Shown piece by piece: positions 7,978-18,432 of a DNA stretch of 18,432 nt. Every line of letters starts with the position of its first letter. Positions within the stretch are counted from its first letter, which is position 1. The stretch lies in UHGV virus genome UHGV-1652841; one strand, 5' to 3'. Made by a program: the position numbers and the translations under genes. The DNA comes from a virus. The notes under the pieces are model-generated. The model was not told the DNA's origin. It searched no databases and saw only the letters and a program-made list of their open reading frames with translations.

Positions 7978-8580
7978 TCATCCCCCGAATGCTGATGTAA
8001 CGCTTCCGCCCAGCTGGCTCAGCAAGGATTCGTTTGGCGGTGTAGTGGATTTCATCCCGGAATTCTGCACCGCCGATGTGCTGACGCCATCCTGCATATC
8101 TGATTTATCTGCAACGCTAACGCTCTGCGTCTGCGACATGATCACTTCACGCAGGGTAAGCGTGCAGTTCAGCACGTTCTCGCTGGTTTTATCCGTTGTC
8201 ACCTCGATGGCTCGCACCAGCATATTGCTGTAAACCCGCTTTCCGGTCACTACATCGAACGGCACCCGAGAGGACTGGAGATCCAGTAGTTGCTGATAGG
8301 TCTCTTTCGGGCTAAGTCCGGCGCTGAGGCCGATTGACGATGTATCAATGAAGTCCAGCAACGAACCGCCACCTGCGAAGCCGCATTCCATCGTGACTTC
8401 GCTGGGGCGCTTATACGCATGATCGGCGATGAAACCCGACGCGCTATTCGTTGTTGGCTTCTCCACCGGGTGCTCAGTAATTTCGAGCGCATCAGAATGC
8501 TTTTCGGAAACGACCACGCTGGGGATCAGCAGGCCAATTCGCCGGGATTGCTGGCGAAAAATCGCTGATAAAATATCCAT
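7978..8580 (-). CDS. Tail protein occupying the position of the Mu gp43 (DNA circulation-type) gene
   Basis: 200 aa; start ATG overlaps the tape-measure stop (TAATG). Family assignment is uncertain; the call is mainly positional. Confidence 0.45.
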   Translation of the reverse strand: MDILSAIFRQQSRRIGLLIPSVVVSEKHSDALEITEHPVEKPTTNSASGFIADHAYKRPSEVTMECGFAGGGSLLDFIDTSSIGLSAGLSPKETYQQLLDLQSSRVPFDVVTGKRVYSNMLVRAIEVTTDKTSENVLNCTLTLREVIMSQTQSVSVADKSDMQDGVSTSAVQNSGMKSTTPPNESLLSQLGGSVTSAFGG

Positions 8581-10217
8581 TATCTCGGTCCTGCGGGGAG
8601 TTGCTGGGTTAACTGTGAATTCACGCCCTTTTGACGGTCAACAGTCAAACGGGCAGCCTCGCGCGGATCGGAAACGCCGTGGATGTTAATGTTCGTTTCC
8701 TGCTGAATCACCGGGGCGCTGGTGGGCATATTGCTCATCACTTTCGGAATGTAGTTGCGCGTTTCCTGCGGCATTAGCCCCATTCCATAACGCTTAACAT
8801 TCCCGATCCCCCAGTTATATGATGCCAGTGCTTTGCTAAGGTCTCCGCCGTTCTGCCGCAACAGCTGGCTGAGGTACTTAGCGGCTGCCTGAGCTGACTT
8901 TTCCGGGTCGAATACATCATTCCCACGCAGGCCCATGTCGCGCGCCGTGCCATCCATAAACTGAAACAGTCCTTTCGCGCCTGCGCCGGATATGGCGAAC
9001 TGGTTACCACCCGACTCGGTGATCGCCACGCTTTTCAACAGGCCAGCTGGCAGCTGATAAAGCGACTCCAGTTTATTGAACATTGGCCCCATCCAGTCGA
9101 GCAATACCTTGCCCTGGGCCGTCGCCTGAGGTCGCTTAACCGACTGCGCTCGCTGCTCCGGCTCCAGTCCCATCTCCTGAATTTTTCGCTGGATTTGCTC
9201 ATCAGTGAAAAAGTCTTTGCCGGGATTTTCCTTTCTCAGCGCCTCATATGCCTGCTGCCTTTCAGGTACGATATTGCTGCCTATACCGCCAATCGACGCC
9301 ATTTCTTCACTGGTGGTCGGCGTATTGTTGGCAGGAATGAACATAAGCAACCATGGATTCTTGATTGCCAGCTGTGCGATCCCCTGCGCCAGCTTACCCA
9401 GCCCACCAATAGAGCCGCCAATTGCCTTACCAAGCCCCATAAATCCGGCGACAAGTCGCCCGATGCCAGTGAGCATGGAGACCAGCTTCGCACCAGCCAG
9501 AAAGCCAAACAGGATGGTGAGCGTATTTTTCCAGCCGCCGAGGTTGTCCTTGAGCTCCAGAAACTTATCGCGCAGCCACTTGAACACCTTCTTTGCCTGC
9601 TCAATTTCTGGCTGCCATTTGGACCAGTCAATCAGGCTTTTACCGCCCTCTTTCCACGTCTGGTAATCGTCGTACAGCAATCCGATCGCCAGAATCAGTG
9701 TGGTGATAATTCCAATCGGGGATTTCAGGAACGCAGAATTAAGCAGACGCCATGCGACCAGTAGAGCACCGAATATTTTCAGCAGATTTTTACTGCCATC
9801 GTCAAGACGCTTCCACCAGTCGATGACAGAGCCAGCGCCCTGTATCAGCCGCCACGCCATTCTCGTGAATGCGTTCGCAAGCCAGATCACGCCTTTAATA
9901 ACTCTGGTCAGCGTCTCTTCAATCTTCGGGAAATTGTCGAGGATGCGCCGCCGCAGGCTGTCCAGCGAACCAGCCAGGCCACCAGCGAGGTTTGAGCCGA
10001 TCTTGTCCCGCATGATGCCGAACAGCGACGTAAGCCCGCGCATGGACGTCATGAATTTGTTGGACTGAACAGCCGCTTTATCAGCGTTGAACCCTGTCTT
10101 TTGCAGCATCGACTGGTAATCGGCGGTAAAGCCATTCATGCCGCGCCGCATCGCCATCAGCGTGTTTTCATCGATGCCAAGCATCTGCGCGTATTGTTTC
10201 GCGCGGTAATACGGCAT
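8580..10217 (-). CDS. Tail tape measure protein with C-terminal lytic transglycosylase (SLT) domain
   Basis: 545 aa; central hydrophobic segments; C-terminal SLT-like motif ...VAITESGGNQFAISGAGAKGLFQFMDGTARDMGL...YNWGIGNV; position upstream of baseplate genes. Upstream context is a deletion junction, so the N-terminus may not be native. Confidence 0.75.
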   Translation of the reverse strand: MPYYRAKQYAQMLGIDENTLMAMRRGMNGFTADYQSMLQKTGFNADKAAVQSNKFMTSMRGLTSLFGIMRDKIGSNLAGGLAGSLDSLRRRILDNFPKIEETLTRVIKGVIWLANAFTRMAWRLIQGAGSVIDWWKRLDDGSKNLLKIFGALLVAWRLLNSAFLKSPIGIITTLILAIGLLYDDYQTWKEGGKSLIDWSKWQPEIEQAKKVFKWLRDKFLELKDNLGGWKNTLTILFGFLAGAKLVSMLTGIGRLVAGFMGLGKAIGGSIGGLGKLAQGIAQLAIKNPWLLMFIPANNTPTTSEEMASIGGIGSNIVPERQQAYEALRKENPGKDFFTDEQIQRKIQEMGLEPEQRAQSVKRPQATAQGKVLLDWMGPMFNKLESLYQLPAGLLKSVAITESGGNQFAISGAGAKGLFQFMDGTARDMGLRGNDVFDPEKSAQAAAKYLSQLLRQNGGDLSKALASYNWGIGNVKRYGMGLMPQETRNYIPKVMSNMPTSAPVIQQETNINIHGVSDPREAARLTVDRQKGVNSQLTQQLPAGPR

Positions 10218-10323
10218 GTTGTTGAGCTTTTGCCCAACCCGCCCTGATAGCTGCCTGTGTGGCGTTTAAATCTTTCAGGTACTCACGGGCAAACAGCTCT
10301 TGTTTGTCGGTGAGCTTTGCCAT
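10174..10323 (-). pseudogene. Terminase small subunit, N-terminal stub (about 28 native residues, then out-of-context sequence)
   Basis: MAKLTDKQELFAREYLKDLNATQAAIRAG matches the conserved N-terminus of P27-type terminase small subunits; after AAIRAG the frame reads WAKAQQHAVLPRETIRADAWHR-stop. No terminase large subunit, portal or capsid genes follow. Confidence 0.6.
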
Positions 10324-10675
10324 TGTTGGCTCCGTTTATCCGTTAAAAGGGATATCAGTTAAGTTATCCCGTGCAGGGTATAAGCCATTGTCGAGACCAC
10401 TCATTGAATGGCCTCTGCAATAACCGATGTCTTTCCATCAGCCCGCCACCACAAAGAATCTTTTTTGCCATAAGGCTGGAGGTTCATCTTTCAGTGGCTG
10501 CCAGTGTTATTTCCCCACTTACTGGCTTGGGTTGCTTCGTGGTACTGCCGTAACTGGTGGTGCACAGATTTAGTTAAATCTGTTCTCGCCTGAACTATCT
10601 TTTACATACCCGGATTGTGGGGATGTAAATCACGGTTTCATTATCAAGCCCACCCGTAGATGGGCTTTGTAATGG

Positions 10676-10933
10676 CTACTTCGCTTTTGCTTCCGCTCGC
10701 TTACGCCGGCGCTCTTCTTTCCTCTCGGCTTTTGCCATGTCCATGAATGCCTGCATGATCGAGTTCCGCATCATGTAGCTAACAAAGTGATGATTGACAC
10801 AGCCGTTGAGGCGCAGCTGCTCGCCAAACTCATCCACCGAGGCCAATGCTTCCCTCATGCCCTTCTCGCCTTTCATGAACTCTGAGAAGTCGCGCCCCGC
10901 TCTGGAGGCGCATTCAATGACACGATCACTCAT
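10676..10933 (-). CDS. Hypothetical small phage protein
   Basis: 85 aa ORF with basic C-terminal tail; start overlaps the stop of the upstream KilA-N gene; followed by a 7-bp-stem hairpin (AAGCCCA / TGGGCTT). Confidence 0.45.
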   Translation of the reverse strand: MSDRVIECASRAGRDFSEFMKGEKGMREALASVDEFGEQLRLNGCVNHHFVSYMMRNSIMQAFMDMAKAERKEERRRKRAEAKAK

Positions 10934-11427
10934 CCCGGAAGCCCGGGGATCGTAATCTGCAGCTGGTTAGCCAGGGAGTTAATCTCAGCGACCAACACTG
11001 GCTTCGTATAGCGCCATGCTGCCAGCCCTTGTCCGCAGAAGCTCGCCATGTCTTTCTTCTGGTCAAACTCATGACATTTCATGTTGAGCTGCGCACTTAA
11101 GCTGTTGCGATGCTGAAGTTCTCCGGTGAAGTAGTCATCGAGGACTTTATAGGCCGCGTACTTGAACCCGGGGTTTAACCAAGCCGCATAATCGTAAGCA
11201 ACAAACTTCCCGCCATATGTTCCACCGTGTACACCGCGCTCAGTAAAAACCACAGATTCGTGGTTTTTCTCCAGCTCGGCTAAGAACTCTTTGGTCTGCT
11301 TGTTTCGCAGGTAGTGGTAAGGCGATTCAGATTCACTTTTACCACTAGCTTTCCACATATCAGTGAGGCAGATCATGCCATCTTCACCGATACGAATTGG
11401 TTGATTGAAGAGGGTTAATGATTTCAT
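10930..11427 (-). CDS. KilA-N domain protein
   Basis: 165 aa; N-terminal ...QPIRIGEDGMICLTDMWKASGK...GGTYGGKFVAYDYAAWLNPGFKYAAYKVL fits the KilA-N pattern. Confidence 0.7.
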   Translation of the reverse strand: MKSLTLFNQPIRIGEDGMICLTDMWKASGKSESESPYHYLRNKQTKEFLAELEKNHESVVFTERGVHGGTYGGKFVAYDYAAWLNPGFKYAAYKVLDDYFTGELQHRNSLSAQLNMKCHEFDQKKDMASFCGQGLAAWRYTKPVLVAEINSLANQLQITIPGLPG

Positions 11428-11541
11428 AGCGTGTACCTACTCTTTGAAATGAACCTTTGCCGCACAGGAAACCAGCCCACCGAGGCTCGCCAGCACTAAC
11501 TGGTATCCTCAAAGGCCCATTCCAAAGGGGCAGGTTCGGTG

Positions 11542-11597
11542 TAAAAAACATGCGTTGCGGTACGCATTTATTGCAAAAAGCCCCGCATCGCGAGGCT
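11542..11597 (-). terminator. Two tandem intrinsic terminators downstream of the lysis cassette
   Basis: Minus-strand hairpin GCCTCGC-GAT-GCGGGGC followed by TTTTTG, then hairpin ATGCGT-ACCGCA-ACGCAT followed by GTTTTTTAC. Confidence 0.5.
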
Positions 11598-11628
11598 CAT
11601 TAAATGGACTTTGTGATTTGCAAAAAAA

Positions 11629-12096
11629 TTATTTCAGGCATTGCGTCCTGATGTATTCCTGCAGGTAGTTAACCTGCGCGGTTATCTTGTCGATTCCACT
11701 TCGTAGACGGTAATAATTGAGTTCAGCATCTGCTGTAAGTCTTGGGCTTTCTCCATCGCCCATGCTGCTGGCTCCGGTCGTTGACTTTGCACAGGTGGCG
11801 GCGACTTGCAGGCGCTTACGGCCAGCAATGACATCGCTATGCAGACGCTCAATGGTTTCTTTCGCATCAGCCAGTTCTCCGGTGTATTTGGCATCCAGTG
11901 CAGCGACATCACGCTGGCGGGTCTGCATGTCTTTAATGGTGGCGGTCGCCAGGAGGAGTTTCTCAGTGGCCTTATCGCGCTGGTCTCTGTAAGTGATGGC
12001 GTTGTCGCGGTAGTGGTTCACGAAGAAAGCCAGTGCGCCGATTAACGCCAGCACCAGCAACTGCAGCCAGTAACGCTTAACCAGTGCGCTAATCAT
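11629..12096 (-). CDS. Rz-like i-spanin
   Basis: 155 aa; N-terminal TM segment then ...[14 protein letters not shown]...[22 protein letters not shown], very close to lambda Rz; ends ...YIRTQCLK; ATGA overlap with endolysin. Confidence 0.85.
11682..11867 (-). CDS. Rz1-like o-spanin lipoprotein, embedded in the +1 frame of Rz
   Basis: Embedded ORF; probable start [20 protein letters not shown] (lipobox VSAC) followed by a proline-rich segment [12 protein letters not shown], as in Rz1. Confidence 0.7.
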
Positions 12097-12542
12097 GACA
12101 GGAACAGAGCTCGCTCTGCCTTGCGGCGATTCGTGAGCCCCGGCATCACCTTTCCGCCTGATTTATTCCAGCGCAGAAATTCATCTGCCGCGCCTTTTAT
12201 ATCGCCAGCATTCAGCTTTTTCAGCAGTGTAGATGTGGAAAGAGCACGCGACCCAACGTTGTAAGCGAACGACACCAGTGCGTCGAACTGGCCTTGTGTC
12301 AGCTTCACCCTGACAACTTTCAGCACGTCATTCTCATAACCAACAAGCCCTGTTTTCAGAAGCCTGTCAGCGGTTTGCTGGTCGATAGTCATACCGCGCT
12401 TTACTGGCTTTCCGTCAACCGGATGGGTCCAGCCATAGCCGATGGTCCACGGCGCATCTCCCGTTCCGGGGTCGGGGTAAGCAGTCAGCCGACAACCTTC
12501 AAATTTTTTTATCAGAGCAATTCCGTCAGGACTGGTTTGCAT
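12093..12542 (-). CDS. Endolysin, T4-lysozyme-like (GH24) family
   Basis: Resembles P22 gp19-type lysozyme (…[18 protein letters not shown]...GYG...[11 protein letters not shown]). Likely start is MQTSPDG (12542), overlapping the holin end; the listed ORF extends to 12614. Confidence 0.85.
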
Positions 12543-12858
12543 CGTCAACTCCCGCCTTTTTTGCTGCAAGTTTTTTAATAAGATTGCCGATCGAATCGGT
12601 GCCGATGTATCCAATAAAGACGCTGGCTATGTAGGCGAGGTTGCTGCTCAGGCCGATAAAGTCCAGAAGGTCACGAACGAACCAGGCAATCATCGCGCAC
12701 ATCAGCGCATCAATTAGCGTTTTTGTTACCGCGCCGCCGTTATAGCGACCACGCAGATACGCCATGATAAAAGCCAGCATTGCACCAATACCCTGCTCCT
12801 TGGCGGCAAGTAGCGCAGCGATGAAATCTTGTTTGTATGGCATTTTCATAGGCCTCAC
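12526..12858 (-). CDS. Holin (lambdoid class, dual-start motif)
   Basis: 110 aa; ...[26 protein letters not shown]...[16 protein letters not shown]... closely resembles lambdoid-prophage holins; N-terminus MRPMKM offers alternative starts; GGAGGT SD upstream. Confidence 0.85.
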
Positions 12859-13228: not shown

Positions 13229-13259
13229 GTTGCCAGTTTTCAATGAAGATAATGCGGGC

Positions 13260-13286
13260 AAAAAAAGCCTGCTCGGACGAACAGGC
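13260..13286 (-). terminator. Intrinsic terminator (minus strand) in the Q-to-lysis intergenic zone
   Basis: Stem GCCTG / CAGGC with 10-nt loop, followed on the minus strand by TTTTTTT. Confidence 0.4.
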
Positions 13287-13665
13287 ATGAAAAATAACAA
13301 TACCGTCAAGGAGGTGGCGCCGGGTGCCTCCCGGTGGAACAGCCCCAGCCGACTAGTTCCGCGCAAACAAACCTGGACAAAAAAGTTTGACTGGACGCCC
13401 CGCCGCATAGGGGGATTCACCACGAACCAAAAGATAAAATCATCCGGTGACCGGGGCAATATCTAACCGGAACTTTTCAGAATCACTTATTGTTTCCTGG
13501 AGAGTACATGAGCGTTGGTGAATTCACGTGATGCTTTTGGATGAGCGCTGAACCCAAAGGTCAGTATTTTCACACAGCAATTTTGCAAAAAGCAGCGCCC
13601 ATTCAAAACCAGGTCGCTTTCCAGTCACTCCGGGGAACCCATCATCGCAGACTGGAAAGCTTTTA

Positions 13666-14165: not shown

Positions 14166-14240
14166 TGGCGGGATAGCGTGGACTCGAACCACGATAAGAA
14201 GGTTAACAGCCTTCCGTAATGACCTTTATACGACTGACCC
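14166..14240 (-). tRNA. tRNA-like element, anticodon GTT (Asn-type), imperfect acceptor and D stems; possibly degenerate
   Basis: Minus strand: GGGTCAG-T-CGTA-TAAAGGTCAT-TACG-GAAGG-CTGTTAA-CCTTC-TTAT-CGTGG-TTCGAGT-CCACG-CTATCCC-G-CCA. Perfect anticodon and T arms and encoded CCA, but two adjacent mismatches in the acceptor stem and no nucleotide 26. Lies 60-90 nt downstream of the Q gene. Confidence 0.35.
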
Positions 14241-15363: not shown

Positions 15364-15650
15364 GACTTAATCTTCCCCTCCTTCAGCAGTATCGCCTGCG
15401 TCCTGATCACGCCTTCGAGGTGGTAAAGCCTGGCGTCTTTGTTGTCGAGATTATGGGTGCGTCGGTCGATTTCATCGTGACACGCGCTACAAGCCCATGC
15501 GCCGATCAGGTCGTCAGGCTTCATTCCCGTTCCGCAAATTCCAGCCATCCGGTAATGTGCCAGAACTGTAGTTTCAGGGTTGCCATTGCATACGCCGTAA
15601 ATACGTACCTGGCATTCTCTGCCGCGCGCTTCTTTGCGTAGGTTAGCCAT
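15360..15650 (-). CDS. DUF1364-family protein (YbcO-like, putative metal-dependent nuclease)
   Basis: 96 aa; MANLRKEARGRECQVRIYGVCNGNPETTVLAHYR…CSACHDEID… matches YbcO-type nin-region proteins. Confidence 0.8.
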   Translation of the reverse strand: MANLRKEARGRECQVRIYGVCNGNPETTVLAHYRMAGICGTGMKPDDLIGAWACSACHDEIDRRTHNLDNKDARLYHLEGVIRTQAILLKEGKIKS

Positions 15651-16372
15651 TAAGCAGCCTCTCCTGTTACTTTCAGCATTCCGTTATCGAGCAACTTTCT
15701 GGTCAGCCACTGTTGACCGCGCCCGGTGATTTTTGTGGTGAACGATATCTGTATTCCGTGATTTGTATTGACCGCTGTTTCTTTCACTGTGAAATAGCCG
15801 CGATCCATATATTCCTGCATTGGCACATTGCGCCGGGAACCTGAAGCAATAAGGATTTTGTGATCGCGCATCCACGCAAACAGTTTGTTTGGACCAATAC
15901 CGACAACCTTTGCAAAGTTTCCAATCAAAATTCCGCTGGCCTCGCCAACGCGATCGGCAAACTCAACTTTAGGTGCGGCAATTGCGAGCTGGTTTTCCAG
16001 TTGCATTTTCTGCTCAGCAAGATCAGCAGCAAGGCGCAACGCTTCTGGTAGCGTTTTGGGGATATTAACCGCAGCTTCTTCAAGCTCTCGCCAGCGGTCA
16101 ACAAGGCGAGCGGTGAATTCCGGCGACAACTGGGCAACAACGACAATACTGTCTCGCTTACCTTGTTCGCCTTCGAAGACGTAATGCTCGTACTGAACAT
16201 TGAACCCTAAGTTATTGATTCTTTCGGAAACCTCAATTTGAGGAAGCCGGATAACACCATTTTTAGCCAGCGTTTCGATGGTACGTTTCACATTGTCATG
16301 ACGCTTACCAACCAACTCAGCGATTTCAATGCTTGTCATTTTGATGGCATTGCCATTTATTAACTCATTCAT
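15650..16372 (-). CDS. Phage antirepressor (Rha-type N-terminal domain plus KilAC/Ant C-terminal domain)
   Basis: 240 aa; N-terminal …MTSIEIAELVGKRHDNVKRTIETL… (Rha-like) and C-terminal antirepressor-like domain. Confidence 0.75.
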   Translation of the reverse strand: MNELINGNAIKMTSIEIAELVGKRHDNVKRTIETLAKNGVIRLPQIEVSERINNLGFNVQYEHYVFEGEQGKRDSIVVVAQLSPEFTARLVDRWRELEEAAVNIPKTLPEALRLAADLAEQKMQLENQLAIAAPKVEFADRVGEASGILIGNFAKVVGIGPNKLFAWMRDHKILIASGSRRNVPMQEYMDRGYFTVKETAVNTNHGIQISFTTKITGRGQQWLTRKLLDNGMLKVTGEAA

Positions 16373-16535
16373 CGTCTTCTTCCTCGTGCATCGAGCTATT
16401 CGGATCGCTCATCAGTTCTGCGCAGCAGTGCTCACACACGTGAACTTCCAGCACATGCAGCTTCTGACCGTAGTTAGCGCACGTTAAAGCTCGCTCGACA
16501 CTTCCTTGTTCGTAACTTCGATTTTGGTCAATCAC
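16365..16535 (-). CDS. Small Cys-rich ORF (possible zinc-binding protein); not in supplied list
   Basis: 56 codons from GTG with GAGGAAAA SD: VIDQNRSYEQGSVERALTCANYGQKLHVLEVHVCEHCCAELMSDPNSSMHEEEDDE; stop overlaps the antirepressor start. In frame with the truncated helicase after its TAG but unlike a DnaB C-terminus. Confidence 0.3.
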   Translation of the reverse strand: MIDQNRSYEQGSVERALTCANYGQKLHVLEVHVCEHCCAELMSDPNSSMHEEEDDE

Positions 16536-16556
16536 CTTGTTTTCCTCGCACGTTCT

Positions 16557-17591
16557 CTAATCGACCAGAATCATGCCAACACATCCTTTTTCTCGCTTGA
16601 TTCGACGACTTTCGCTGACGATTTGAGCCAGAGATAATCCCGGCGTGTCGTCGATGTAAAGCAGGTCGATTTCACTCAAGCGATTGGCTGTTTCGATCGC
16701 CCTGTTGAAGTCACCATCGTAATCACCCTGATAGCCGTCATCAGCGTCATTTGTCGCCGGAATGTAAAAAATATTCGGGTTAACACCTGACTTCTGTCCT
16801 ACCAGCTTTTCCAGTATCTGGTCGCCTGGCATTTCAAGACTGAACATCAGAGCGGGCTTTTTCTCATGCACTGCGCAGTTGATTGCCATCTGGCTGTATA
16901 GCGTCGTTTTCCCCATCTTAGGGCGAGCGCCAATGACGAACAGAGAGCCTTTCACCAGACCTTTCGGTGACAGCATCCTGTCCAGAGATGGGATCCCTGT
17001 GCTCATTCCTCGTTGTTCGCCTGACGGGTCAAATCGCTTCTCAAGGTCGCTAACCCAGTCTTCCATGACCTCACCAAATGAGCGAAGGCCGCGACGCGAT
17101 CCGGTTTTTGCATGGTCTGTCAGTTGCGTGAAAATCGCCTGAATAGCTTCGTACTTCTGCGTTGCAGTCATTCCGTTGCGGGAATAGAGCAATTCCGTCG
17201 CTTCAGTCATGCGGTTGATGGCGTAGCGTTCCATTGCGGTTTCACGAACCTGCATTGCATAGGCAACGATGTTTGCTGCGCTTGGCGTGTTCTTTGCGAT
17301 CTCAGCGATATAAGCAAAACCGCCAACAGACGCCGTTAACGATTTACGCTCCAGTTCATCGAAAAGCGTCAGGCCATCTACTGGCTTTTGCTCCCGGTGC
17401 ATTCTGGTTATTTCTTCGAAAAGGATTTTGTGTGGTCGGCTGTAAAATGAATCAGGCTTCAGCATCGCCAGAACTTTCTGGACGCGCTCACTGCTGTCAT
17501 CATCCAGAAGCAATCCACCAATCACCGCCTGCTCTGCCTCGATGCTATGGGGCGGCGCATAAAAATTATCGGTCATCGTGTTCACCCTCAC
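16557..17591 (-). CDS. DnaB-like replicative helicase, C-terminally truncated
   Basis: 344 aa with DnaB N-terminal domain and Walker A (GARPKMGKTT); ends ...GCVGMILVD-TAG where intact DnaB-family proteins continue (…IDYLQLM… and about 130 more residues). Confidence 0.8.
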   Translation of the reverse strand: MRVNTMTDNFYAPPHSIEAEQAVIGGLLLDDDSSERVQKVLAMLKPDSFYSRPHKILFEEITRMHREQKPVDGLTLFDELERKSLTASVGGFAYIAEIAKNTPSAANIVAYAMQVRETAMERYAINRMTEATELLYSRNGMTATQKYEAIQAIFTQLTDHAKTGSRRGLRSFGEVMEDWVSDLEKRFDPSGEQRGMSTGIPSLDRMLSPKGLVKGSLFVIGARPKMGKTTLYSQMAINCAVHEKKPALMFSLEMPGDQILEKLVGQKSGVNPNIFYIPATNDADDGYQGDYDGDFNRAIETANRLSEIDLLYIDDTPGLSLAQIVSESRRIKREKGCVGMILVD

Positions 17592-18258
17592 GAACTTTCA
17601 GGTAGGTATTATCGTTAAGCAGGAAATCAAATCCCTTTTTGTGCCAGACGGTTCCGCGTTGATGGTTTGGGCGCTCTTCGAACATCCATCGGCAATTTTC
17701 GCCAACGTAGCTCAAATAATTTCTCCAGTCCTGCATCGTGAACCCATGCCCGTCAAGTTGGCGTGTTATTACTCCGGCTTTGCGCCAGAACGTTCGGATC
17801 TGGTTTTTACGCTTGTCATTCAGTGCGCGGATTCTTGGCGCTTCAGGAAGGATTTCGTGGTAAGCATCGACAACATCCTGACAGCTGACGGAAGGTTTTT
17901 TCTTGTCAGACTTTTTGTCTGCTGTGGCACTCTCTAATACGTCAGTATTAGAGATATTATTTATATTATTGTTTATGGACAACTGTTGGACAACCGTTGG
18001 ACAATCTCCGCTGAGAGCCGCACCATTACTGGTGTTTGCGTTGGACAACCGTTGGACAACCGTTGGACAATTTTTTGACTGAAAATCGTCATATTTAACG
18101 ATTGTAAACAGGCTAAATTTCTTCCCCATCGCGCAAATATTAAGCATCCCTTTCGACTCAAAAGTCCGTAATAAGCTCCGAACTTTGTTGTCGGGGATGA
18201 ATGTTTCTCTGACCAGCGACGGGCGTCCAGTTGTCCGATAGCTCCCTGTACCGGGCAA
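17566..18258 (-). CDS. Replication initiator (lambda O-like organisation: ori iterons inside the coding region); 5' end probably not native
   Basis: 230 aa ORF overlapping the helicase gene by 26 nt; contains six phased iterons in frame (CPTVVQRLSN repeats); the first codons are antisense to the integrase remnant. Confidence 0.5.
   Translation of the reverse strand: MPGTGSYRTTGRPSLVRETFIPDNKVRSLLRTFESKGMLNICAMGKKFSLFTIVKYDDFQSKNCPTVVQRLSNANTSNGAALSGDCPTVVQQLSINNNINNISNTDVLESATADKKSDKKKPSVSCQDVVDAYHEILPEAPRIRALNDKRKNQIRTFWRKAGVITRQLDGHGFTMQDWRNYLSYVGENCRWMFEERPNHQRGTVWHKKGFDFLLNDNTYLKVREGEHDDR
17976..18070. repeat. Origin-like iteron array: 6 x TGGACAA in two triplets, all on an 11-bp register
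   Basis: Copies at 17976, 17987, 17998, 18042, 18053, 18064 (11-bp spacing within triplets, 44 bp between triplets); flanked by AT-rich stretches on both sides. Confidence 0.75.
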
Positions 18259-18432
18259 CGAGTCGGTGATTTATGCGAAATGAAGTGGTCTGATATCGTA
18301 GATGGATATCTTTATGTCGAGCAAAGCAAAACGGGCGTAAAAATTGCCATCCCTACAACATTGCATGTTGATGCTCTCGGGATATCAATGAAGGAAACAC
18401 TTGATAAATGCAAAGAGATTCTTGGCGGAGAA
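18250..18432 (+). pseudogene. Lambda-family tyrosine integrase, internal fragment (5' truncated; continues beyond window end)
   Basis: TGQRVGDLCEMKWSDIVDGYLYVEQSKTGVKIAIPTTLHVDALGISMKETLDKCKEILGGE is nearly identical to the middle of lambda Int as I recall it. Similarity starts abruptly near 18250; upstream in-frame sequence is unrelated and the frame closes at a TAA at 18172-18174. Confidence 0.85.

Follow-up and report, generated by a model that had tools for sequence, protein, structure and literature searches.

What keeps six copies of one heptamer on a single 11-bp register in the middle of a phage replication gene, and what could such a structure still do once the gene around it has been cut down to a stump? 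Both questions are raised by the virus genome UHGV-1652841, which we analysed as one 18,432-nucleotide stretch of DNA (hereafter the window). Our answer is that the array is very probably the putative replication origin of an Sf6/L/mEpX2-type lambdoid module, orphaned in a multiply deleted prophage at att-lambda. The feature is therefore already known, real but ordinary: the Sf6 record AF547987 holds a rep_origin (L001 2911-3006, 96 bp) that corresponds exactly to 17976-18071 of the window and is labelled 'putative; repeat region reminiscent of the phage lambda origin; similar to phage HK620', whilst in HK620 the corresponding position of the O gene is annotated with a two-part rep_origin. For phage L, the genome paper puts forward the six 11-bp repeats seen here as the likely origin (PMC8022706), and this was the only paper returned by a literature search, including one with the literal repeat, for a binding, footprint or ori-plasmid assay on this class of 11-bp iterons. 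The published wording for the class is 'putative' or 'likely', and we keep to it here.

The array and its setting

The cores, all exact TGGACAA on the plus strand, begin at 17976, 17987, 17998, 18042, 18053 and 18064, giving start-to-start spacings of 11, 11, 44, 11 and 11 bp and so placing all six on one 11-bp register. The heptamer is expected by chance in about 2.4 copies per whole window, and a single copy does lie outside the array, at 13374, the seventh in 18.4 kb. Clustering is another matter: across 300 windows simulated under a Markov-1 model, no 7-mer of any kind reached more than 3 copies in 95 bp, against the 6 observed, and chance does not account for the six-core array. Tandem Repeats Finder reports two 11-bp arrays (17976-18004 and 18039-18070, with 94-100% matches), and a repeat search places all six copies in one family. 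The true unit is a complete 11-bp direct repeat, TTGTCCAACGG on the minus (gene) strand, in which TTGTCCA is invariant; measured in these 11-mers the array covers 17972-18070, and measured in cores 17976-18070.

Read in the sense of the gene, on the minus strand, triplet A comes first (18038-18070), with the tandem units TTGTCCAACGG, TTGTCCAACGG and TTGTCCAACGC; it makes up the first half of the rep_origin feature of Sf6. A non-repeated spacer (18005-18037, minus strand) separates it from triplet B (17972-18004, minus strand), whose units are TTGTCCAACGG, TTGTCCAACAG and TTGTCCATAAA. The spacer is 33 bp long, exactly three unit lengths, and for this reason both triplets stay on one 11-bp register and the open reading frame stays in frame. 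The DnaA-box consensus is TTATCCACA, and we rejected the possibility that the repeats are DnaA boxes: TTGTCCAAC agrees with it at 6 of 9 positions, and the iterons of HK620-type relatives do not match it.

Directly downstream of the last iteron, again in the sense of the gene, lies a block in which 20 of 21 bases are A or T (17955-17975, assigned to no strand), presumably the DNA-unwinding element. It is adjoined by a palindrome (17931-17954, likewise without strand), TCTCTAATAC-gtca-GTATTAGAGA, with perfect 10-bp arms around a 4-nt centre. The AT-richest 40 bp of the whole gene, at 82% A+T, are found at 17937-17976, and the opposite flank of the array (18071-18119) reaches only about 70%.

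The minus-strand open reading frame that holds the array runs over 17566-18258. Within it, 17566-18232 (minus strand) is the remnant of an O-like, or gene-18-like, replication initiator, with codons 76-296 of 296 present and 98% nucleotide identity to Sf6 gene 43 and to the O gene of mEpX2. The array occupies codons ~129-160 of the 296, in the linker between the N- and C-terminal domains of the initiator. The helicase gene follows directly downstream and overlaps the end of the initiator gene, in the window as in Sf6 and mEpX2; here it is a remnant (16558-17576, minus strand) of a DnaB-like replicative helicase of the P22 gene 12 / Sf6 gene 44 type. Taken as a whole, 16558-18235 (1678 bp) shows 98.3% identity with the replication modules found in Shigella phage Sf6 and coliphage mEpX2. 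A first reading of the locus, made from the sequence only, had described six TGGACAA cores in two triplets on a common 11-bp register with a 44-bp step, inside the replication gene, and the exact positions bear it out on each of these points. Its further statement that the array is flanked by AT-rich DNA holds for the low-coordinate side; the flanks are asymmetric, and the other side falls short.

The same 11-mer as in the window, TGTCCAACGG, recurs in phage L gene 18, in Sf6 gene 43 and in the O genes of mEpX2, HK106 and HK75. The window shares with this class the six repeats of ~11 bp, TGTCCAACGG(A), in a 3+3 arrangement with spacings of 11, 11, 44, 11 and 11 bp, the homologous host gene, the position in the linker, the AT-rich block and palindrome that come next, and the DnaB-like helicase downstream, 3'-truncated in our case. 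The O genes of HK620 and HK022 carry a putative origin of the same class with another iteron sequence. What sets the window apart from its Sf6/L-class relatives is context: the initiator is without codons 1-75, the C-terminus of the helicase is missing, and a fragment of int is joined to the module. There is no intact cognate initiator in cis, which makes this an orphan origin and not another kind of element.

An orphaned module and its possible fate

How did the module come to be stranded? Homology to the initiator stops at about 18232, and the first 75 codons together with everything upstream (cII, cro and pR) are deleted. Without residues 1-75, the remnant protein has lost about half of its N-terminal domain, so that a binding assay would need an intact homologue and not the protein encoded here. 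The helicase is cut at its other end: the first 339 of 478 codons are present and the 3' 418 bp are missing, blastn homology ending at 16558. The product is short of 139 C-terminal residues and, compared with the full-length Sf6 protein, retains Pfam DnaB plus a partial DnaB_C (positions 1-136 of 255).

The deletion joint itself (18233-18248, assigned to no strand) consists of 16 bp without a megablast match to the initiator gene or to int. At the joint, the 9-mer CAGTTGTCC (18228-18236) is an inverted match to iteron 1; chance alone would give about 0.5 of these per 500 bp, and we take it as coincidence. Beyond the joint lies the 3' part of a lambda/434-type integrase gene (18249-18432, plus strand), 97.8-98.9% identical to int of 434, HK106 and Huey, which runs off the end of the window towards attL. 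Across the joint, the IMG/VR contig UViG_3300030379_000026 matches the window at 100% identity, and it goes on to the stop codon of int and to the lambda att core GCTTTTTTATACTAA; this continuation identifies the element, on sequence grounds, as a multiply deleted prophage remnant at att-lambda. The lost segment began inside int and ended inside the initiator gene, a stretch where lambdoid prophages carry xis, the early-left operon and the immunity region. Damage extends to the late region, with a lysis cassette that abuts a tape-measure fragment and no terminase or head genes between them. The element had been called defective on first reading, and so it is: initiator and helicase are both cut, int is fused to the stump, and the terminase and head genes are missing.

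With half of the initiator N-domain and the promoter region gone and the helicase truncated, the origin is orphaned and cannot fire in cis. The DNA site is another matter. The live phage mEpX2 has the same six iterons, AT-rich block and palindrome, base for base, and the origin region as a whole differs from it by one base, in the spacer; a few differences from Sf6 fall in the iteron flanks. As a site, then, the origin is intact in sequence, and from its identity to the iterons of a live phage it is plausible that it retains the potential to be bound by an initiator. At most, it could be bound, and conceivably fired, only in trans, if a co-resident or superinfecting phage with the same iteron type supplied initiator and helicase.

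Could such an orphan be something other than inert? We posit, as an outside chance, that the initiator of an infecting or induced Sf6, mEpX2, HK106 or L-class phage would load onto it, leading either to decoy titration or to firing in situ. If true, titration would act as a decoy, much as in the iteron-dependent 'inhibition phenotype' of lambda, and in-situ firing would amplify the gal-bio region along with the tail and lysis genes of the remnant. A related suggestion is that the orphan origin has been kept as something useful to the host or to the remnant, either a decoy that titrates incoming initiators of the same type or a site amplified by a helper phage. The match to the iterons of live mEpX2 is in keeping with this, and encounters are plausible, as the same module, through the iterons, is present in 143 of 5426 complete E. 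coli genomes; moreover, plasmid-borne lambda iterons together with oop block the replication of rep-lambda phage (PMC3349717). Inhibition in lambda also needed oop transcription, however (PMC3349717), and here the deletion has removed the corresponding region, upstream of the initiator gene. Nor is intactness informative: identity to live phages is 98% along the entire remnant, so that 95 intact bp are no evidence of selection. The exact joint between initiator gene and int, for its part, was found in one metagenomic contig only, with 0 matches in species-representative genomes and none in the best-matching of the 5426 complete E. coli genomes, none of which extends past 18235. We therefore regard retention for use as improbable.

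Diverged relatives and other readings of the repeats

The case for the origin is best considered across its relatives. Initiators 31-78% identical to Sf6 gp43 keep the layout whilst the sequence of the iteron changes: a 3+3 arrangement of 11-bp repeats, with 66 bp from triplet start to triplet start, is found in SE1Spa, HK620/HK022, Chronis and Eho59. On the gene strand the iteron reads ATGTCCAACGG in SE1Spa, TTACCAGCA(G/A)A (i.e. TTACCAGCAnA) in HK620 and HK022, TGTCCAGCC in Klebsiella phage Chronis and TTGCCAnCAnA in Erwinia phage Eho59. The arrays of these relatives start within about 10 codons of one another (gene positions ~385-398). In each, the AT-richest 40 bp of the gene come right after the last iteron, as in lambda, and are followed by a palindrome, which is kept at the same place with differing sequences.

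The comparison of Sf6 with HK620/HK022 is particularly telling as to what travels with what. Identity is 49% in the N-domain, 15% in the segment encoded by the iterons and 95-97% in the C-domain (95% for HK620), and at the nucleotide level the match between HK620/HK022 and the window (97-98%) breaks off precisely at 17976, where the iterons meet the AT-rich block. The iteron type is thus co-inherited with the N-terminal domain of the initiator.

Among 71 distinct IMG/VR relatives, which are related to one another and non-independent and so offer support and not a formal test, nucleotide diversity (pi) was 0.0035 in the AT-rich block and 0.024 in the iteron cores, compared with 0.048 in the C-domain coding sequence, 0.063 in the 33-bp spacer and 0.144 in the N-domain coding sequence. 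The comparison across diverged relatives supports a function at the level of the DNA, on which the constraint would act. Spacings of 11, 11, 44, 11 and 11 bp recur in 76 of 80 IMG/VR loci, and 2 further loci differ by point changes in one copy only. The last two are copy-number variants, one with 9 copies (three triplets) and one with 3 (a single triplet). Copy number changes only in multiples of three units, since other changes would break the reading frame. The 3+3 layout is probably, then, in part forced by its coding context, in which only changes of 33 bp or of 66 bp (triplet plus spacer) keep the open reading frame in frame; and if the 3-copy and 9-copy relatives are viable, six sites are not strictly required.

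Could the repeats instead exist for the sake of the protein, encoding a duplicated linker peptide (CPTVVQRLS ... CPTVVQQLS), with no function as DNA? The triplets do lie 66 bp, or 22 codons, apart, and a peptide repeat does appear in translation. Yet 11 is not a multiple of 3: the three copies within each triplet are read in three different frames and cannot be preserved by selection for a peptide. A common frame exists only between one triplet and the other, through their 66-bp offset, and the peptide duplication follows as a by-product. Relatives, moreover, keep the geometry of the DNA (11-bp units, 3+3, 66 bp) with a wholly changed peptide (VPADYQQIT, CPADVQPMS, VPTDCHQSA), and the iteron cores with the adjoining AT-rich block are the least variable DNA of the gene. 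We find this reading very hard to sustain.

Much the same must be said of the idea that the triplets are transcription signals, namely sigma-70 promoters on the plus strand, antisense to the initiator gene, with the palindrome and a T-rich run as an intrinsic terminator. A promoter scan did return TGGACA-18 nt-GACAAT at 17976-18005 and 18042-18071, and a terminator scan a terminator-like hairpin at 17931-17954. However, the promoter matches are weak (9/12) with poor -10 hexamers, three promoter-like sites were found where 1.3 +/- 1.1 are expected, and the matches arise from the repeat as a by-product. Iterons of the HK620 type (TTACCAGCA) and of the Erwinia type, with the same geometry, are unlike TTGACA, and the hairpin has only 3 G-C pairs; a role in transcription is accordingly most unlikely.

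The repeats of parC on plasmid R1 are also 11 bp long, and are bound by ParR. That the array should be a centromere-like or other protein-loading site of this kind, and not an origin, is scarcely credible, even if R1 parC likewise has two separate sets of 5-fold repeated iterons (PMC2241845), for the neighbouring genes are those for initiator, helicase, int and anti-repressor, with no ParR/ParM-like genes adjoining whose promoter the repeats could flank, as in type II partition centromeres, and the array lies inside the initiator gene and upstream of a DnaB-like helicase gene, has an iteron type co-inherited with the initiator N-terminal domain, and is followed by an AT-rich block as in the lambda and SPP1 origins.

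The class of origin and how it might work

If the array is a putative origin, as we consider very probable, to which of the better-known origins is it closest? The sequence-only reading had likened it to the architecture of a lambdoid origin, and the likeness is good as regards place and order. In lambda, too, the origin lies centrally within the initiator gene, between the parts for the N- and C-terminal domains, with iterons (ITN1-4), AT-rich region and palindrome all within gene O, and iteron specificity is likewise inherited with the N-terminal domain; the annotations of Sf6 and HK620 match this reading. The likeness fails at the iterons themselves. Those of lambda number four, are ~19-20 bp long with internal dyad symmetry and are spaced 20, 24 and 23 bp apart, in contrast to the six 11-bp direct repeats found here, and the partner of the lambda initiator is the P loader as opposed to a DnaB-like helicase. 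The initiator does not belong to the lambda O family either: BLASTP of the protein against lambda O gave no similarity (E >= 4.5), and intact Sf6 gp43, searched against Pfam at E <= 0.01, returned only a sub-threshold DUF7376 and no Phage_rep_O (PF04492).

P22 offers a mixed comparison. Its origin also lies inside the initiator gene (gene 18) and is followed by an AT-rich run, the partner is again a DnaB-like helicase (gene 12), and gp18 shows weak C-terminal similarity to the initiator (25% identity, E = 2e-4). Its four repeats of ~20 bp, spaced 20, 24 and 23 bp apart, are different, and its N-terminal domain is unrelated by BLASTP. The 11-bp direct repeats, in short, are a class distinct from the iterons of lambda and P22.

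A parallel for the N-terminal domain comes from further afield. The intact homologue of our initiator matches PHROG 345 ('replication initiation O-like') and also PHROG 2514 and 186 ('DnaD-like helicase loader', E = 4e-24 and 8e-16, respectively); searches of Pfam, NCBIfam and PDB sequences with the intact initiator and a 7-member profile turned up neither a usable family nor a solved relative, family links having come only from PHROGs and tblastn. By tblastn, residues 20-127 of the intact homologue are 28% identical to the product of SPP1 gene 38 (E = 9e-6), and gene 38 has short tandem repeats, in 9-bp units, at the equivalent position. In SPP1, the direct repeats of oriL, which G38P binds, lie within gene 38 itself beside an AT-rich unwinding element, and replication in vitro has been demonstrated (PMC6316719). 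Related N-terminal domains, and short direct repeats together with an AT-rich unwinding element in the initiator's own gene, are thus common to both systems. SPP1 differs as a virulent phage of Gram-positive hosts with a separate helicase loader, G39P, a second origin, oriR, and other repeat units and spacing; in the window, no gene for a G39P-type loader stands between initiator and helicase.

By analogy with lambda O and ori-lambda on the one hand, and with SPP1 G38P and oriL on the other, we can propose how an intact version of this origin might work. The initiator would bind the six 11-bp repeats, which lie within its own coding sequence, through its N-terminal domain (residues ~22-128), a relative of SPP1 G38P and DnaD-like proteins, and the common register would set the bound proteins roughly on one face of the helix, favouring a compact nucleoprotein complex. 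With repeats of 11 bp and a helical turn of 10.5 bp, the two triplets would lie about 100 degrees out of phase on relaxed B-DNA, so that they would share a face strictly only if the DNA were underwound or wrapped. The complex could then destabilise the adjoining AT-rich block, and the C-terminal domain would bring to the opened DNA the DnaB-like helicase that the phage itself encodes in the gene immediately downstream.

What does the array tell us, then, about the remnant and about the phages from which it derives? For the remnant, the array marks its replication type, and the 1.7-kb replication stump is an orphan origin. For the phages, the invariance of the 3+3 arrangement, the 11-bp register and the 66-bp spacing across five diverged iteron types provides comparative support for this putative class of origin, and the steps of three units by which copy number varies fit what one would expect of an origin confined to an essential reading frame.

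Position of the remnant and its joints

The window is identical to the IMG/VR contig UViG_3300030379_000026, of which positions 1-420 lie beyond the window's right end. This contig runs on past the stop codon of the integrase (int) fragment and reaches GCTTTTTTATACTAA, which we take to be the lambda att core, followed by bacterial flank. On this assignment, the remnant sits at att-lambda.

At 18228-18248 the initiator stump meets the int fragment in a deletion joint, 16 bp of which (18233-18248) match neither the initiator side nor the int side. This joint also forms a 9-mer, CAGTTGTCC, that matches iteron 1 in inverted orientation; since chance alone predicts ~0.5 matches of this kind, we treat it as a coincidence.

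The early-right region has a second rearrangement joint, at 16372-16560: the helicase gene ends abruptly at 16558, with 339 of its 478 codons left, and after the break come a small PHROG-672 ORF at 16365-16535 and, at 15650-16372, a gene for an Ant-like anti-repressor. Within 8580-12858, a lysis cassette (holin, endolysin and Rz-like spanin) and a regulator gene directly precede a tape-measure fragment, which matches positions 195-658 of a 673-position profile and is accompanied by baseplate and tail-fibre genes of Mu/P2-like type. Genes for terminase, portal and head are absent between the lysis/regulator genes and the tape-measure/tail genes in this interval, making this a further large deletion or else a mosaic joint. 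The stretch that separates the Q-like antiterminator gene from the lysis genes carries, both on the minus strand, a tRNA-Asn(GTT) gene (14166-14240) and a match to the STnc100 sRNA (13256-13448) that scores 71.7 bits, exceeding the gathering score. The lone seventh TGGACAA core, at 13374, falls within the STnc100 match.

The edge of the array and its palindrome

Over 17269 to exactly 17976, the lambdoid phages HK620 and HK022 share 97-98% identity with the window, and past that point the sequences are unrelated; this places a mosaic recombination joint precisely between the first iteron and the AT-rich block. Adjoining that block, at 17931-17954, is a palindrome whose 10-bp arms, TCTCTAATAC/GTATTAGAGA, pair perfectly. 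Palindromes of different sequence occupy the equivalent place in another relative, L091 (CTCATTAGG/CCTAATGAG), in Klebsiella phage Chronis (TTACTACC/GGTAGTAA) and in Erwinia phage Eho59 (ATCTAATAC/GTATTAGAT), and lambda likewise carries one, GTCAGAGAATTC/GAATCCTCTGAC, in the matching relative position. From these comparisons, it appears to be the symmetry that is conserved here, and not the sequence.

The iteron triplets and their copy number

Each iteron triplet can also be read as a weak sigma-70-like promoter (TGGACA-18 nt-GACAAT, 9/12 matches), at 17976-18005 and 18042-18071 on the plus strand, antisense to the initiator gene. As other iteron types do not share this likeness, it probably arises from the repeat itself.

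The array varies naturally in copy number among IMG/VR relatives. One of them, L066 (1588-1748), has nine iterons in three triplets (+66 bp), and another, L068 (1588-1616), has three iterons in a single triplet (-66 bp), the reading frame being kept in both. The iteron counts observed are 3, 6 and 9, each a multiple of three 11-bp units, as would be expected if the origin were locked within an essential ORF.
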